Shown one piece after another: positions 11,879 to 42,580 of a stretch of 64,000 nt of DNA. This stretch comes from Rubripirellula sp. (lineage in GTDB: Bacteria > Planctomycetota > Planctomycetia > Pirellulales > Pirellulaceae): NCBI GenBank assembly GCA_965216875.1, contig OZ244207.1:2688001-2752000 (forward strand). Reading direction: 5' to 3'. Positions within the stretch are counted from its first letter, which is position 1, and the number at the start of each line of letters is the position of its first letter. The notes under the pieces were generated by a model. It saw only the letters and a list, made by a program, of their open reading frames with translations. It was not told the origin of the DNA and made no database searches. Both the position numbers and the translations under genes were made by a program.

Positions 11879-12739
11879 CTAGAGTTGCGGTCGATTGTGC
11901 GGCTGCCCCGTTCCGCCGATCAACGAACCATCGCGAGTGCCGACAGCTGGCGCACCATCGGGCAGCGCCTGCCCTTGGCGTGCGAGCTCCGCATCATCGA
12001 CCGGATAGGCTGCCAGGTTCGTCACGATCTCGTTTGCTGGGATCCCGCGGAACAACGGCCGCAGATCATCTTCGGTCGTTCGCGAGTGAATGGGGCCCGG
12101 TGTGTCGAGCGCCTCGAGGTTCATTGCGAACGGCGAGATATCGTAGGCGTTGTAGTGAGCCGTCTCGAATTTGAAACCTTCGGCAACTACCGTCTCGCGA
12201 GGCAACTGCAGCAGCTCGACGCCAATCAGGATCCGGATCTCCTGGAAGTACTTCCAGATGTCTTGGGCAAACTGTTGGGTGATCGTCAGCGCGAGATTGT
12301 TGTCCGAGTGCTGGTAGATGTTCGTTAGCGCGATCATCGTCAGCGTGTTGTATTCGATCAACCAATGGTTCCGAACTGCCGGCCCATGGAAGAACGGCAC
12401 AGGGTGAATGTTCCACGGCTTCGAATCCGCGGTTGCGTGGCCCTCCTCGAGCCGGATGTCGCTATCGACCTTCATACGGCTTTGCAGCTTCGTGTGAATC
12501 CGATTGTTCATCTGGCAGAGTCGCTCGACGGTGTTGCGGCTCGGCGGCTGCGTGCGCTGCGCGTCGATGTGCGTCATCACAAACAGCTGACCCTTCGAGA
12601 TCTCATCAGCCAGGCCGTGAATCGGCGTCGACAACGTTCCGTAATTATTGCCGAAGTTGGGCACCGCGAATCCCATCTCTGCCCACGGTGCGACGTTGTA
12701 GAGTTGCGGTCGATCGGATCCGAAAATCGTTCTGCTCAT
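11879..12739 (-). CDS. Phage hypothetical protein
   Basis: 286 aa ORF with AGGAGG RBS; no recognisable motif. Confidence 0.8.
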   Translation of the reverse strand: MSRTIFGSDRPQLYNVAPWAEMGFAVPNFGNNYGTLSTPIHGLADEISKGQLFVMTHIDAQRTQPPSRNTVERLCQMNNRIHTKLQSRMKVDSDIRLEEGHATADSKPWNIHPVPFFHGPAVRNHWLIEYNTLTMIALTNIYQHSDNNLALTITQQFAQDIWKYFQEIRILIGVELLQLPRETVVAEGFKFETAHYNAYDISPFAMNLEALDTPGPIHSRTTEDDLRPLFRGIPANEIVTNLAAYPVDDAELARQGQALPDGAPAVGTRDGSLIGGTGQPHNRPQL

Positions 12740-14386: not shown

Positions 14387-14836
14387 CTACTTCTCGCTAA
14401 TGAACGAAACCGATCCCGCTTTCTTGGACGGTTTCATGCCGCGAATGGACTTGAGCCAGGCGTCAGCCTCAGCACGAGCCAGCTCGCTGACGCCTAGCGT
14501 TTGTTCCAGTTGATATCGCTGTCGCAGCTTATACAGGAGCTTCTGACGCTTGGCCTTGGGCATCTCCTGCAGAACGGCTCCGAGGATCTCCGCGGCCGGA
14601 GCTGCTGAGTTTGCGGAGCCTTCCCAAGACGTGCCCACATTCAGATTGCCGCAGATTGGCACGTTGATTTTGAAGCGGCCGAATGTCCCGAGCAGCGCCC
14701 CTTTGATCGGGTACTGCTTGCCCTCTTGAATGTCGACGCGAACGAACTGCTTCTCGCAGAACTTCATCGCTGCAGCGAAGAGCTGATTCTTGTAATCGTT
14801 TCGCTGCAGGTCACGACTTACTGCCTTCGTGGCCAT
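14387..14836 (-). CDS. Phage hypothetical protein, first gene of the late operon
   Basis: Start at MATKAVSRD after a GGGGGA RBS; the longer ORF start runs through the structured leader. Confidence 0.75.
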   Translation of the reverse strand: MATKAVSRDLQRNDYKNQLFAAAMKFCEKQFVRVDIQEGKQYPIKGALLGTFGRFKINVPICGNLNVGTSWEGSANSAAPAAEILGAVLQEMPKAKRQKLLYKLRQRYQLEQTLGVSELARAEADAWLKSIRGMKPSKKAGSVSFISEK

Positions 14837-14851
14837 GCCAATTCCCCCCAC

Positions 14852-14930
14852 GTGCGCCAACACGCTGCGAGTCCGCATCCGTGCGAACCAGGACCGTCGA
14901 TCCATCGACACTCGCAGCGCGTTGGCGCAC
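14852..14930 (-). promoter_or_regulatory. Structured late-leader RNA: 21-bp stem enclosing two GGA-loop hairpins (CsrA-type sites)
   Basis: Arms 14852-14872 and 14910-14930 (the single mismatch is G-U on the minus strand); internal GUCGA-UGGA-UCGAC and CGCA-CGGA-UGCG. Confidence 0.7.
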
Positions 14931-14983
14931 AAAAAAACCCAAGGTCTTATGTCGGCGCATATTGCGCCACAAATGGCCCTGGG
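14931..14983 (-). terminator. Leader terminator upstream of the late operon
   Basis: Long imperfect hairpin CCCAGGG...GGCGCA-AUA-UGCGCC...CCUUGGG followed by U7. Confidence 0.65.
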
Positions 14984-14994
14984 AATTGAACCGC

Positions 14995-15024
14995 ACCTTA
15001 CTGTACAGTCCGAAAACGCCGCAA
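14995..15024 (-). promoter_or_regulatory. Candidate sigma70-like late promoter
   Basis: TTGCGG-N18-TAAGGT on the minus strand, just upstream of the leader terminator. Confidence 0.4.
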
Positions 15025-15045: not shown

Positions 15046-15576
15046 ATGTTGGTGGAATTGATCGCTTTGATCGATTCGATTCCCGATTGGGAATCAAAGT
15101 CGATCGAAGACCTTCACGAATTGATCACGCGCGAAGATCCGCGGCGACTTCCAAAGGACGTCGCCCATCTCGATCTCGCGAATCTCGCTGATCGAATCGA
15201 CGTCGAAGTTGCCGAGACGTTGGTGGTTAAGATCACTGAGGCCGGAATGCCGGCAATGGCTCAATCACTCGTCGCGCGCGGTCTGGACTTTGGAAGTCCC
15301 AAGATCCAAAAGAAACTCGATGAACTTGCCGGCGCCGGTGTGCTGCCTGGTTCGTTAGCCGAAAAGCTAAGGAGCTTTGGTGTCGATCGTCGCTCCCAAT
15401 GGCAACGGATCAGCGACAAGCCTGATCCGAGTGTCGACGATGTCGAGGCGGCCGTCTTCTCGCTTCGCATGAATCGTCAGCTCGAGAACGCCAAGGCAAT
15501 CTTTGCACAGCGGATGGGCGTTGGCGATGATCCCGCCACGGTTTGGTCAGGCGCCTGGAAGGATGCCGAGCACTGA
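15046..15576 (+). CDS. Phage hypothetical protein (first gene of the divergent cassette)
   Basis: 176 aa; GGAGG RBS; TGATG coupling to the next gene. Confidence 0.8.
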   Translation: MLVELIALIDSIPDWESKSIEDLHELITREDPRRLPKDVAHLDLANLADRIDVEVAETLVVKITEAGMPAMAQSLVARGLDFGSPKIQKKLDELAGAGVLPGSLAEKLRSFGVDRRSQWQRISDKPDPSVDDVEAAVFSLRMNRQLENAKAIFAQRMGVGDDPATVWSGAWKDAEH

Positions 15577-16685
15577 TGCCATACGCGCACTATTATGTCG
15601 ACGCATCGATTGGCAACGATGATCTAGCCACAGGTCGCGGTGAGTCACCGGGTGACCCATGGGCAACCTACGAACATGCGGTAACTGCGTTGGGAACTCT
15701 ATCCCAGACGACGCAAGTGAACATCAAGGGAACGCAGAGTATCACCGCAACGCAACCGATGCCGGGTGGTATGTCCTTTAGTCGCGTCTTCGCGATCCGA
15801 GGCTACACGAGCGTTGCAAATGACGGCGGACTGTTCACCTTCGACATGCAAGGAAACAGCAACCCGATTATCGACACCACCGCAACAGGTTTGCACATTG
15901 CTGACGGTGATTTCTTAAACACTGGAGCAGCCGCATACGCCGTCAGGTTCCAGCAGTACAGCGCGGCGGCAAACATCTACGTCGCTGGTGGCGATGGCGA
16001 TGGCATTCGGCTTGGTGGTTCTTCTAGTGCGATTTGCTGCGGTGTTGAAAACATGGGCGGCTACGGGATCTACGCTGACTCAAGCAACGGCAGGGTTATG
16101 GGCTGTTGGCTGAAGAACGGAGCGAGCAACAAGTTCTCCTACGCAATTGGACTTGGCGGATCTGGTAGCCTCGCAGTCGGCAACATGGTTGCGATCGACG
16201 GGAGCTCAGTTGGAATCTGGCAATACTCATTCCCCGGTTACGTTGAAGGAAACAGCATTATCGGGATGGGTACAGGCACGCCAACAGGCATCCTGTGGAA
16301 CAACAACGCACTCGGCGGGATTTTGGCAAGCAACGTTCTCGATGGATTGAACATTGGAATCAATTCAAGCATCTCTAACCGATACGGCATCCTCTACGGA
16401 CACAATGCATTCGGAAACAATACGACCGATGTCAGCGGAGCCGTTTCCGATGTCTTCACAGTCGAAAAATCCAACGAGTTCCTCGGCGCAACGGCGATCA
16501 TCGGCCGAACGGGATCCAATGCATTCCGCAGTCACGAAGGCTATTGGGGGCTGAACGACGTCGGCACCGTCCGCACAAATGGTTACGGGCCAGGGCGAAG
16601 CATTGGGGCTGTTCATCATCAAGGTAGCGGCGGCGGTGGTAGTCCTTCTGTTTCTGGTTACTCACTCGCGAGACTTGTGCAATGA
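15576..16685 (+). CDS. Right-handed beta-helix (pectin-lyase-like) protein; possible tailspike/virion appendage
   Basis: YYVDASIGND N-terminus; G/N/S-rich repeated GI-x motifs (DGIRL, YGIYA, VGIWQ, TGILW, IGINS). Confidence 0.75.
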   Translation: MPYAHYYVDASIGNDDLATGRGESPGDPWATYEHAVTALGTLSQTTQVNIKGTQSITATQPMPGGMSFSRVFAIRGYTSVANDGGLFTFDMQGNSNPIIDTTATGLHIADGDFLNTGAAAYAVRFQQYSAAANIYVAGGDGDGIRLGGSSSAICCGVENMGGYGIYADSSNGRVMGCWLKNGASNKFSYAIGLGGSGSLAVGNMVAIDGSSVGIWQYSFPGYVEGNSIIGMGTGTPTGILWNNNALGGILASNVLDGLNIGINSSISNRYGILYGHNAFGNNTTDVSGAVSDVFTVEKSNEFLGATAIIGRTGSNAFRSHEGYWGLNDVGTVRTNGYGPGRSIGAVHHQGSGGGGSPSVSGYSLARLVQ

Positions 16686-18238
16686 GCGAAGTAGTTCAAA
16701 ACAGCACGCGAAAGTTCAAAGTGTTCATGGTCGACGCTACGACCAAAGAACCAATAGACGATCTCCTGCCAAGCGACTTTACGGTCTATCTCAACAAACC
16801 AGGCCTCTCCGATGCAACGACCATTCCGTCGATCGCAAATCGCGGACATGGTTGGTATGAGATCACCCCGATTGCGGCCGATCGCGATACGATCGGCGAG
16901 TCAGGTTGGACGTTCACTGCAACCGGTGCCGATCCCTACCCGCGGCTCGAGAACGTGATCGCGATCGATAAAGATGATCCTCAGCGCGCTGGATTGGGCG
17001 CACTGCCGGAAACTGACGTCGCCTCGACCGTTCCTGCGATGCAGGCCGTCGCTGACGACTTCAAAGCGACGGGGTTTGCGGAACCAGGCGACGCGATGAG
17101 TTTGATCGACGATGCAGTCGGCCGCGACCAAATCGAAGATGGCGCGATCAATGAAGACAAGATCGCTCCAAATGCGATCGGAGCTTCGCAGGTCTCAAAC
17201 GGGGCGGTCGCGAAATTCGAAGGTGCGCTGCTTAACGATGGCGACGGCTCTGCGCTATTGGCCGCGATTGTTGCGGCGATCGATGCGGCCGACATTGATG
17301 CAGATTTGCTTCCCGGCTTGATCGTCAATGCGTTGTTTGATCGCGTGCTCGCAGGCAACCACGAAACGGCCGGCACGTTTGGGCGAATCGTCCAAGACGT
17401 GCTGCAGCATACCGGCACCGCGATCCCCACGTCGATCAATGATGTTCCGAGTTTGGTCGTCGCTGCAATGCAGGCTGTTGCGGACAGCTTCAAGGCGGAC
17501 ACTGCAGGCCTCTCGACGCACTCAGCTGCCGATGTGTGGGCTGTTGTCGAAAGGACGCTCACCGAGGGCACACGGGACGCTCAGATCGACGCTGTGAAGC
17601 TAAAGTCAGATCAGATGCAGTTCTCCGGTGGATTGCTCGAGGTGATCGTTCACGACTTCCTGACGGCTGCTCTGCAGCAATTCATCACCGTTGACACCGG
17701 TTTCAGCTCGGCCGGCACGCGAAGCGTCGCAGCAATCAGCCAAGGATCCGGAGGCGGTGGAGGTGGCGGCGGACCGGTCACGATCGACTATGGGGAGATT
17801 TCCGCATCGCTCGCACTCACCCTCTCACGCCTGGTTGTGAAAGCGTCAACGCTGTCGAGCGTCGATCATGTCGTCGCGCGTGGCACAACTTGGCGGATCC
17901 CGATAGAAGAGTTGCCCGCCGCTTGGACAAAGGTCGAGATCACAGCGCGATCCAATCCCGACGCGTCGCAATCGTCGAGCCTCTTTCACGTGCGACTCAG
18001 CAATCCGACGGACGCCGAAGATGGTCTGCAAGTTTTCGCAGGATCCGGCGACGTCAACGCGTCCGATGGCGAGATCGACACGCTTGTCGATCCGCCGGTC
18101 TGTAACATCGCCGCGGCACTCACAGCAGACGCCGAGTCGTGCGAGTACTGCTACGACGTGAAAGTCTGGGAGGGTGAAGCGATCACTCGAACTTCCTACG
18201 GATTGATCACGGTTGAGAAGGACGTTACCCGGACATAA
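16682..18238 (+). CDS. Virion-associated fibre/baseplate-like protein with Ig-like end domains
   Basis: Acidic, Ala-rich, Gly linker; C-terminal YCYDVKV...G.ITVEKDVTR resembles BppU-like phage domains; ATGA coupling. Confidence 0.65.
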   Translation: MSEVVQNSTRKFKVFMVDATTKEPIDDLLPSDFTVYLNKPGLSDATTIPSIANRGHGWYEITPIAADRDTIGESGWTFTATGADPYPRLENVIAIDKDDPQRAGLGALPETDVASTVPAMQAVADDFKATGFAEPGDAMSLIDDAVGRDQIEDGAINEDKIAPNAIGASQVSNGAVAKFEGALLNDGDGSALLAAIVAAIDAADIDADLLPGLIVNALFDRVLAGNHETAGTFGRIVQDVLQHTGTAIPTSINDVPSLVVAAMQAVADSFKADTAGLSTHSAADVWAVVERTLTEGTRDAQIDAVKLKSDQMQFSGGLLEVIVHDFLTAALQQFITVDTGFSSAGTRSVAAISQGSGGGGGGGGPVTIDYGEISASLALTLSRLVVKASTLSSVDHVVARGTTWRIPIEELPAAWTKVEITARSNPDASQSSSLFHVRLSNPTDAEDGLQVFAGSGDVNASDGEIDTLVDPPVCNIAAALTADAESCEYCYDVKVWEGEAITRTSYGLITVEKDVTRT

Positions 18239-24839: not shown

Positions 24840-26591
24840 TCACCCAAACTCAAAGAAGGTCTGTGTTTGCCCAGAGGGGGCGGTTTGAAATTGCGCGGGC
24901 ACTTGCACAAGCGGAGCCGCCTCGATCAGTGACGGCTCGGCTCGCATGTAATGGGCGTCGTTGACGTCGCGCGCAGCATGACCGAGAACCCAGCGGCCGA
25001 GGTCCTCACCCATCCCCGCACGCGTCCAACGAATGTTGGCGGTCGATCGAAGATGTTGTCGCCTAACATGCTCGAGGCCTGCTTGTGAGACGATCTTGGA
25101 CCACTCGTCGCGAAACCGATGCCCTTTGCTGTCCGTCCATTGAAAGAGGTTGCCACCGCGGCGACGAAGCAGCTCGTCGACGTGGATCCGGACGCATGGC
25201 GGAAGCGGCACGATCAAACGCGATCGCTTTTTGCGTTTCGTCTTGGTTGGCTGATAGATGAGCCAACCGTGATCGCTCGATCGGACACTGCGAGCCACTG
25301 GCGATTCAGGCTGCAGCCGAAAGTTGTCGGCCGACAACGTCGCGCAGTCGTTTACCCGTGGACCAAGCACCGAGCCGATCACCAGGAAGGTGCGCCACTG
25401 CAGTTGGGGCACCTCGCTTGGCCAGGCTGCCACCTCGCACGCGTCGTAGATGCGGCCGATCTGCTCATCGGTGACGTCCGCCGGCCCGCCGGCATCTTCG
25501 TCGCCGAGCTGCTCGACCAGGTCGCTTAGAGGCGACATGGCCGGCACGCGTGGAAGCAAGCAGAGTGCGGACGGGTTGCCCGATTCACGGGGACCAACCT
25601 TTCGCAGAATTGCTCTGATCTTCTTCCACTGCTTGCCGGCCGAGTCGATCGACAATTGCGCCCCATTGTCCGCCATTAACCAGACGCCGAACTCATTCAG
25701 GATCGAGTCCGAAATCTGAGAAACTGGGAGGGTTGCGGCGGTTTGCTGGGGCAAAGTTTGCGCGCGAGTACTTCTAGTACTCGCGCGCTGCTCAAGGAAT
25801 CGTTCCCAGTGATCAAGCGCTGTGAAGTACTGCGTTGTCGTAGATCTCGCCCTTGCGCGAAAGATGAGAGGGTGCAAGTGTTCGAGGAAACAATCACGTA
25901 GCGTGATGTCCATCGGATCGGACTCGTCGCCCGGGTCATACATTCGAAGTGCGGCGGTCACGTTGGGATCCTCCCAGCTCGAGGCAATCGCGTCGGATGC
26001 TGGGACCATCCAACTAAACAGAAACAACAGTGCTGCCGCGCGGGTGAGAGCTTGCAGACGCTTGATTGCGTCGCGTCGATCAGATTGCCTGTTGGTTTCG
26101 CTGATAGCGACCGAGACGCGAGATTCGCTGACTTTGAGTTGCTTGCCGACGTCTTTCATCGAGTGGCCTTCGCACCGCAATAGGATTGCCCGAACTGCCA
26201 ACGATTCGGTTGCACACTTCCGCTTCAGTTCTTCCCATTCGATTGCGCCAAGATCATCGTGGCTATCTTCGATCTGAACGCAGTGCCTACCGTTCTCGTC
26301 AACCATTGAGTCGAGAGACCCAGCGAAGTCATCGACCCGTCTCGGCTTGCCGTGTCGCGTATCGTGTCCGTGCTTTCTCCAGAGATCCTTCGCTCGCAGT
26401 GGCAATACGCGCCAGATGTACGTTTTCCATTGAGCTTTGTCGGGGTCGAATCGCAATGCCAACCGCCAAACCTCCATCCTTAGTTCTTGCTCGATGTCGT
26501 GGATATCCAGGGCACCGATCTTCCGCGCTCGCGAGGCCAAGGTCAGCACGCACTTTTCAGCCTGCGCCAACAACTCGTCGACGTCGTTCAT
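24840..26591 (-). CDS. Sigma70/ECF-like domain fused in frame to a tyrosine recombinase
   Basis: Sigma region 2 (DIEQE...RFDP...WKTYI...DLWRK) and region 4 HTH (SMKDVGKQLKVSESRVS); recombinase GPRVND, KTK, QHLR, LGH and HY motifs. Confidence 0.85.
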   Translation of the reverse strand: MNDVDELLAQAEKCVLTLASRARKIGALDIHDIEQELRMEVWRLALRFDPDKAQWKTYIWRVLPLRAKDLWRKHGHDTRHGKPRRVDDFAGSLDSMVDENGRHCVQIEDSHDDLGAIEWEELKRKCATESLAVRAILLRCEGHSMKDVGKQLKVSESRVSVAISETNRQSDRRDAIKRLQALTRAAALLFLFSWMVPASDAIASSWEDPNVTAALRMYDPGDESDPMDITLRDCFLEHLHPLIFRARARSTTTQYFTALDHWERFLEQRASTRSTRAQTLPQQTAATLPVSQISDSILNEFGVWLMADNGAQLSIDSAGKQWKKIRAILRKVGPRESGNPSALCLLPRVPAMSPLSDLVEQLGDEDAGGPADVTDEQIGRIYDACEVAAWPSEVPQLQWRTFLVIGSVLGPRVNDCATLSADNFRLQPESPVARSVRSSDHGWLIYQPTKTKRKKRSRLIVPLPPCVRIHVDELLRRRGGNLFQWTDSKGHRFRDEWSKIVSQAGLEHVRRQHLRSTANIRWTRAGMGEDLGRWVLGHAARDVNDAHYMRAEPSLIEAAPLVQVPAQFQTAPSGQTQTFFEFG

Positions 26592-26866
26592 CGCTTGGCA
26601 CCTCGCAGAACGGCCGAAACGATCGCCTTTGCCTCGGCCGGGTTTCCGTGGAAACGATCGCCAAGCGCTTCGACGATCTCCGCTGCGACTTTGTCGACGT
26701 GGTTACTCGCCGCGTTCACGCCGATCGGCTGATTTCCACGCGATCGCAATACCAGCACGTTCTTTGGGGCAAATACCCCAATCCGTGCTCGGTCGAAAAA
26801 GAGCACTCTTGTATCGTGTCCGATATGAACGAAATGGCCGGCCTGACCCGTAAGGCGTAACATCAT
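26588..26866 (-). CDS. Divergent phage-encoded CsrA/RsmA-family protein with C-terminal helical extension
   Basis: MLRLTGQAGHFVHIGHDTRVLFFDRARIGVFAPKNVLVLR aligns with the CsrA ML.LTR..GE...IG...RIG..AP..V.V.R pattern. Confidence 0.7.
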   Translation of the reverse strand: MMLRLTGQAGHFVHIGHDTRVLFFDRARIGVFAPKNVLVLRSRGNQPIGVNAASNHVDKVAAEIVEALGDRFHGNPAEAKAIVSAVLRGAKR

Positions 26867-27606: not shown

Positions 27607-27652
27607 GGATTGTGGTTCCGAAAGTCGGGGGTTCGAATCCCCTCAGCCACCC
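27607..27652 (+). pseudogene. 3' half of tRNA-His(GUG) = prophage attR core
   Basis: GGA-TTGTGGT-TCC anticodon arm, T-arm GGGGG-TTCGAAT-CCCCT, acceptor 3' strand CAGCCAC-C; no GTGGCTG 5' strand or D-arm upstream. Confidence 0.88.
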
Positions 27653-27668
27653 TTGGATTTACCTAATT

Positions 27669-42355: not shown

Positions 42356-42580
42356 ATGTTGGTACTAAGTCGCAAAGAGGGTGAGCAACTGTTGATCGGC
42401 GATAACATCGTGTTGACGATCAATCGCATTTCAGGAAATCGAGTTGCTATCGGAATCGACGCCCCTCGCGATGTTCGGATTGTGCGAGGCGAACTACAGC
42501 GTCACGAAACGGTTGCCGGAGGATCGGCTCCGATGGCGCTCGAAGAAACCAACGTCGCGGTTGCCAGCAAACCTCACTAG
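42356..42580 (+). CDS. csrA: Carbon storage regulator CsrA-family protein
   Basis: MLVLSRKEGEQLLIGDNIVLTINRISGNRVAIGIDAPRDVRIVRGEL. Confidence 0.93.
   Translation: MLVLSRKEGEQLLIGDNIVLTINRISGNRVAIGIDAPRDVRIVRGELQRHETVAGGSAPMALEETNVAVASKPH

Follow-up and report, generated by a model that had tools for sequence, protein, structure and literature searches.

The question raised by this locus is whether an RNA in which two GGA-bearing hairpins stand on one long stem, transcribed from the minus strand just ahead of the virion genes of a prophage, serves as a binding site for CsrA-family proteins and, if so, what that binding would do to late gene expression. In the window (the whole stretch of 64,000 nt that was analysed), positions 14930-14910 are complementary to positions 14872-14852 over 21 pairs, one of them a G-U pair (14920/14862). 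The 5′ arm of this outer stem (14910-14930) opens into a three-way junction that carries hairpin 1 (14896-14909, with the hexamer AUGGAU at 14905-14900) and hairpin 2 (14874-14885, with ACGGAU at 14882-14877), and the 3′ arm (14852-14872) partly overlaps the ribosome footprint of the gene that follows. The GGA loops lie 23 nt apart, start to start, and both GGAs are predicted to be unpaired (probabilities of 0.95 and 0.8). The minimum free energy of the element is -54.7 kcal/mol (z -6.0), a stability that none of 200 shuffled sequences equalled, and in a comparison of strands the minus strand folded better than the plus strand (-53.2 versus -47.7). The 21-bp inverted repeat with its single G-U and the two hairpins inside it are thus present where the original prediction had placed them, and the fold prediction agrees with them. 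Two of its descriptions need adjustment. The stem does comprise 21 complementary positions, but the predicted helix is 17-19 bp long, because hairpin 2 can be extended by 3-4 pairs at the expense of the outer stem and this extension competes with the top 2-4 pairs of the latter. The loops had been called tetraloops; the GGA hairpins are there, but an A-U pair closes each of them, and the same ACGGAU forms a hexaloop, bound by RsmE, in the RsmE-hcnA complex as described in PMC4005645.

The genomic background against which such a fold has to be judged is not empty. Long stems are commonplace in this genome, with 94 loci having at least 20 of 21 pairs, and most of the 40 long-stem loci listed are repeated palindromes that include several REP-like families. 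Twin ANGGAN hairpins occur three times in 8.26 Mb, about two being expected, and the pair in the element is the only one of the three that lies within a long stem. A descriptor search of the host genome for a CsrB-like cluster of at least three ANGGAN hairpins found none, and contigs from sequencing runs contained no variants; the partial contigs among them end at GATC- or GANTC-type junctions and resemble ligation chimeras. Since long stems are common and twin ANGGAN hairpins are close to chance, the window alone is no proof of function, and it is conservation that has to carry the argument against chance. A REP-like palindrome or a chance fold without RNA function would be in keeping with the many long palindromes of the genome and with the TwoAYGGAY RNAs of Pseudomonas, which are described as multi-copy and REP-associated (bioRxiv 10.64898/2026.09.22.753630). 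Against it, the element is single-copy, does not resemble these repeats and is the sole strong match of model R1 in the genome; together with the positional conservation of the GGA loops and the strict test for twin GGA hairpins presented below, this largely refutes the explanation and makes it very improbable.

The surroundings of the element suggest a late leader. Immediately upstream lies a predicted terminator (14931-14983), an interrupted stem followed by seven U residues with a folding energy of -24.4 kcal/mol; it was missed by a consensus scan (14983-14931), and the same layout is found at two related loci, L207 and L250. Further upstream, a weak hexamer at 15000-15005 is, judging from its position, a possible -10 element of a late promoter; the consensus scan did not call it, and L207 and L250 carry a better -10 sequence at the equivalent position. 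Divergent from this leader runs a three-gene cassette (15046-18238, plus strand) that encodes proteins of 176, 369 and 518 aa without Pfam or PHROG family, the gene for the 518-aa protein having a divergent homologue in L207. On the downstream side, a gap of 2 nt separates the 3′ arm of the outer stem from the G-rich Shine-Dalgarno sequence (14842-14849) of a conserved phage gene of 149 aa (14387-14836), which opens a co-directional run of terminase, portal, protease and capsid genes. The proposed position of the element, between a leader terminator and the ribosome-binding site of the first late gene and ending 2 nt short of it, is therefore confirmed, with the terminator being a predicted one. 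The suggestion that the element might control read-through fails for the leader terminator in cis within the window, because transcription reaches the element only once it has passed the U-tract.

The AUG of the 149-aa gene is at 14836, and its homologues begin at the equivalent position. Each GGA loop contains an AUG in frame with this gene (14905 and 14878), the first of which is chosen as the start by gene callers; a leader peptide starting at these loop codons was considered and rejected, as it is unconserved in L207 or L250. The 149-aa protein is modelled with a pLDDT of 95.7, and it has no match among Pfam and PHROG families, solved and viral folds, Atlas entries or the proteins of annotated phages. 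Homologues also sit behind promoter-like sequences in loci without a nearby terminase. The 286-aa protein encoded at 11879-12739 (minus strand) has no family, and it is widely conserved just upstream of planctomycete-type phage terminases, a neighbourhood seen at 43 viral and 45 metagenome loci.

Proximity of the stem to the ribosome-binding site raises the possibility that the long stem is the functional part, either as an RNase III site or as a block of the ribosome-binding site, the GGA loops being a relic or the site of another protein. In the window, the outer stem doubles the energy needed to open the region from -20 to +12 (24.8 kcal/mol, versus 12.6 once the stem is removed), RNase III is present in the host and the CsrA-like copy of the phage is degenerate, all of which would suit such a role. 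This effect on the ribosome footprint is absent in L207 and L250, however, and among relatives the stem ranges from 6 to more than 20 bp in length while the GGA persists, which leaves this explanation improbable. Two alternative pairings were also tried and rejected. Pairing of 8-10 bp between the 5′ arm of the terminator and the linker between the hairpins can be drawn in the window, L207 and L250, but the duplex was not above shuffled sequences (fractions 0.27, 0.12 and 0.17, respectively), and a pattern search for it returned only L207 itself and four loci without the 149-aa gene. Pairing of the 5′ end of the leader (14988-14981) with the Shine-Dalgarno sequence is isoenergetic with the terminator fold, in the window only, and a complement as long was found in one of 22 control genes.

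Conservation was addressed by gathering homologues of the 149-aa gene and of its neighbouring genes and grouping 45 loci by protein context, after exclusion of three duplicates (L240, L256 and L282), of L371, which has fewer than 100 nt upstream, and of two weak matches (G232 and G1052). The hairpin loops of the minimum free energy fold were then counted in the 300 nt upstream of the gene, in a grouping that was not blind, as several leaders had been viewed beforehand. In the 20 loci with the terminase downstream, GGA was present in 31 of 96 loops, versus 3.2 ± 1.8 in 30 sets of shuffled sequences (maximum 8), and half of these loci (10/20) had two or more GGA loops; up to six GGA loop motifs occur in the 300 nt of L033. 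The count was 1 of 52 loops in the 15 loci of other contexts and 4 of 41 in the ten whose context was not resolved. When one locus per cluster was retained and the window dropped (n=16, with one of four close genomes kept), 20 GGA loops remained versus 2.2 in shuffled sequences. At least two of the 31 GGA loops overlap or adjoin a ribosome-binding site, and in several the A that should precede GGA is missing.

The branched shape is conserved as well as the loops. Twelve branched RNAs from nine lineages were compared, of which nine expose two GGA arms and three expose one. Their stems share little sequence; in an alignment of six of them, 12 of 17 pairs have changed on both sides, a count that leans towards structure because the RNAs were chosen by eye, and RNAalifold recovers the same junction. 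The loops of most relatives read AAGGAN, AGGGAU or AGGAN (for example AAGGAU, AGGAU and AAGGAC), and the spacing between GGAs is 18-25 nt. The model built on the six sequences detects two loci outside its training set, L358 and L361, at the same position and weakly (E values of 0.07 and 0.8). Searched against 150 genomes of the family, model R1 gave seven weak matches, all of which turned out on inspection to lack twin GGA loops and to be either palindromic repeats or chance matches, and against 87 distant terminase loci it gave four weak matches, none of them at the leader. The expectation of covarying stems with fixed GGA loops in related prophages was thus borne out in that the stems vary and the GGA persists, but not as regards the loop, which is not fixed as AYGGAY. 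The element is real and conserved.

Two layouts of the junction can be distinguished, and they bear differently on what it might do. The first is that of the window, L207 and L250, where a long-stemmed junction ending near the ribosome-binding site comes after a short terminated leader; the junctions of L207 and L250 have three arms. In these two loci (L207 7778-7866 and L250 954-1060), a motif of the CCCCAG/CUGGGG type is repeated four to five times through terminator and junction; such repeats could allow alternative pairings during transcription, and a DNA-binding site is also possible. In the second layout, found in the g73 genus, L040, L361 and L217, a stem of 6-12 bp is followed by a U-tract, and between the junction and the gene lie the U-tract and roughly 35-90 nt; the g73 genus has two or three additional free GGA hairpins upstream of the junction. 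Overall, the junction lies directly behind a terminator in six of the nine lineages, and in L034 the order is reversed, with the junction before the terminator. The U-tract directly after the junction in the second layout would be compatible with CsrA-dependent attenuation, in which binding clamps the junction so that a branched intrinsic terminator works or fails. As no U-tract follows the junction in the window, L207 and L250, attenuation would be confined to the other layout; in those three loci the junction also lies downstream of the terminator and would be transcribed too late to influence it. As a general explanation, attenuation is accordingly improbable.

More speaks for the alternative in which CsrA, once recruited by the loops, obstructs in cis the ribosome-binding site from which the 149-aa gene is translated. 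The stem ends 2 nt before the Shine-Dalgarno sequence, a GGA-loop hairpin lies over the ribosome-binding site or start region in L207, L250 and L217, and the tether-and-bridge repression described for glgC of E. coli provides a precedent (PMC7652899). Several features speak against such a cis-acting operator: the two loops would by themselves occupy both pockets of the dimer, a helix of 17-21 bp would hold them away from the Shine-Dalgarno sequence, the GGA which this sequence contains in the window (14849-14842) lacks the upstream A of the CsrA consensus, and in the four lineages with a U-tract the gene is well removed from the junction. This operator reading comes close behind the favoured one given below, though on balance it is rather unlikely as the main function.

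Strict twin GGA hairpins were scored in 94 loci having at least 6 kb of sequence upstream of this type of terminase and were present in five of the seven loci with csrA in range, versus one of the 87 without; none was found in the 81 loci that had neither csrA nor the 149-aa gene, and ten control triplets scored in 0-1 of the seven csrA loci. Reassignment of L207 and L346, whose csrA is further off, changed the figures to 5/9 versus 1/85. In a separate observation, the twin GGA hairpins of the window, L033, L036, L217 and L361 lie 3.19-3.29 kb upstream of the terminase match with different genes in between, which may be coincidence. A csrA-like gene is present in seven of the nine junction lineages; of the other two, L250 is represented by a contig of 4,960 nt, and L358, which has a one-arm junction, showed no csrA in about 28 kb upstream. 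The association has exceptions, for L037, L039 and L041 have csrA and the 149-aa gene with no junction before the gene, and the close relatives G1040, G1041 and G1042 have csrA with neither the 149-aa gene nor a model match. In addition, a triplet-blind scan for junctions in 248 terminase or p286 loci, mostly of distant phages, gave no excess of GGA (6 loci, versus a mean of 2.3 and a maximum of 11 for other triplets). The motif is therefore restricted to a clade, and its link with csrA is confounded with descent.

The element lies in a prophage of about 38.3 kb, partly inside the window, that is bounded by a 49-bp direct repeat (27607-27655, the other copy being at genome positions 2677278-2677326). 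On the plus strand, this att-like repeat resembles part of a tRNA gene; no tRNA in the window was called by ARAGORN. Judging from a Planctomycete cytochrome domain and from how homologous proteins are named, the host is a planctomycete. Its genome has seven CsrA genes above the cut-off, FliW and RNase III, and one of the seven paralogues is at 42356-42580 of the window (plus strand), outside the prophage. The early operon of the prophage holds a degenerate CsrA-like gene (26588-26863, minus strand; phrog_5527). Its product scores 20 bits with Pfam PF02599, under the cut-off of 27, and phmmer without an alignment ranks RsmE first (E 0.1); the 11 top Foldseek rows are all CsrA, RsmA or RsmE (E 0.07 or worse), a result that is partly circular because CsrA proteins made up the alignment behind the query model. 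In the alignment, the protein retains Leu2, Leu4 and the Arg matching R44 and lacks the near-invariant Arg6, the Glu that follows it and four residues of the beta3-beta4 turn. Because this copy is degenerate, the ligand in this prophage may be one of the seven host paralogues; across the clade, it is probably the phage's own CsrA. Elsewhere in prophage-like regions, tandem two-domain CsrA genes were noticed (L034 6448-6849 and L292 1101-1403), whose products could form single-chain dimers. A 583-aa protein (24840-26591, minus strand) combines an N-terminal sigma-70 region 2 with a C-terminal part that weakly resembles a tyrosine integrase of L035, and it is conserved (46% over residues 210-582) in G1038, a provirus whose CsrA is intact; it is a possible sigma-integrase fusion and candidate late activator.

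Several known systems resemble the element. In canonical TwoAYGGAY RNAs, one basal stem carries two hairpins whose loops read AYGGAY (bioRxiv 10.64898/2026.09.22.753630); they were first listed as not cis-regulatory (Weinberg 2010, PMC2864571) and have been proposed to bind CsrA (PMC4333381). The window element shares the two hairpins on a basal stem and AYGGAY in both loops. In contrast to that family (RF01731), described from Pseudomonadota and Bacillota as multi-copy and repeat-associated, it is a single-copy element of a planctomycete prophage with a fixed place ahead of the virion genes, and among relatives the loop loosens to ANGGAN or AGGAN. The main text of the preprint does not mention Planctomycetes; hits are broken down by order in its supplements, which may be relevant here. 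The RF01731 model (gathering score 43 bits) gave no match at E≤10 in 201 nt of the window, in 11 loci from relatives or in the genome, where 150 of 240 candidates were scored. The element is thus a TwoAYGGAY look-alike whose membership of the family is unsupported by the model. Rfam scans of the window yielded no family at cut-off, with generic hairpin matches to miRNA models only; the models of clan CL00106 had no match in the window, and the relative L021 scored 21 bits with PrrB_RsmZ, under the cut-off of 44. As in the decoy sRNAs CsrB, RsmY and RsmZ, the GGAs are presented in short hairpin loops and paired for a dimer, and some relatives have four to six GGA loops ending in a U-tract, like the Rsm RNAs. 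Unlike these sRNAs, the element has two loops only, lies within an mRNA leader and is phage-borne. The decoy sRNAs have been described mainly from Gammaproteobacteria that lack FliW (PMC7652899), whereas this host has FliW. With the hcnA operator, the element shares the ACGGAU loop of hairpin 2, and a GGA hairpin over the ribosome-binding site, as in hcnA and glgC, recurs in some relatives; unlike in those CsrA/RsmE operators, neither loop of the element overlaps the Shine-Dalgarno sequence and both top a long helix. A CsrA dimer bridges sites 10-63 nt apart, with an optimum above 18 nt (PMC7652899), and the 23 nt between the ANGGAN loops of the element fall within this range; the 18-25 nt seen among the junctions are likewise compatible with bridging.

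Genes for csrA have been reported in about 1% of phages (30/2517; PMC7366521), and knockdown of one of them, gp28 of PTXU04, shrinks plaques (PMC11879866). Phage-encoded CsrA, whether of the RsmM type, of PTXU04 or of PHROG 9500 and 5527, is likewise phage-borne; the accessible parts of those reports (PMC7366521; PMC11879866) name no RNA target, whereas here a candidate RNA travels with the csrA gene. In a literature search that was thin on subscription journals, neither a GGA junction in a phage late leader nor Csr RNAs in planctomycete phages were found to be reported. The order of promoter, short terminated leader and late operon is shared with the pR′-tR′ late leader of phage lambda. Lambda is not known to have a GGA junction behind its terminator, and in contrast to lambda no Q-like antiterminator was identified in this prophage.

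Taken together, these observations suggest that the element is probably bound by a CsrA-family protein. The original idea of a bidentate site for one CsrA dimer gains from the conservation of GGA on changing stems, from the 23-nt spacing and from the presence of csrA in related prophages, but fits less well with the one-armed form of three of the 12 junctions. The favoured, still tentative reading is that the three-way junction binds one dimer by both loops and so acts as a sink for CsrA on the late transcript, titration being perhaps its main effect. This reading is preferred because a single dimer would have both of its pockets taken up by the two loops, because the loops stand far from the Shine-Dalgarno sequence on a rigid helix and because elsewhere the junction is closed by a U-tract and accompanied by extra loops, like an Rsm sRNA. 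Transcription from a late promoter would end at the U-tract and give a short leader of about 60 nt; since the junction lies just behind the terminator in most lineages, it would be made only on read-through and then in the amounts of late mRNA. Each junction would fill both RNA pockets of a dimer, so that CsrA would leave ribosome-binding sites that contain GGA, such as those under the GGA hairpin over the start in L207, L250 and L217, and late translation would thereby acquire a threshold. Stability of the sink would come from the long stem or, in other lineages, from the closing U-tract, and RNase III may cut the stem and release it. Titration by the sink is compatible with action on the adjacent gene, and both can hold. 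A wider proposal, put forward with some doubt, is that the clade has a private Csr circuit in which an early csrA restrains late translation until a decoy on the late RNA, made only upon antitermination, flips the switch.

An important consequence of these findings is that this family of loci offers a 79-nt candidate CsrA target at the early-to-late boundary. It bears on two points stated as open in the literature, namely whether CsrA is really bound by RNAs of the TwoAYGGAY type (PMC4333381) and whether one bacterium can have both FliW and RNA antagonists (PMC7652899). If the private Csr circuit is true, phage-encoded CsrA would acquire a defined RNA partner, and a host with FliW would be shown to harbour an RNA antagonist of CsrA as well.
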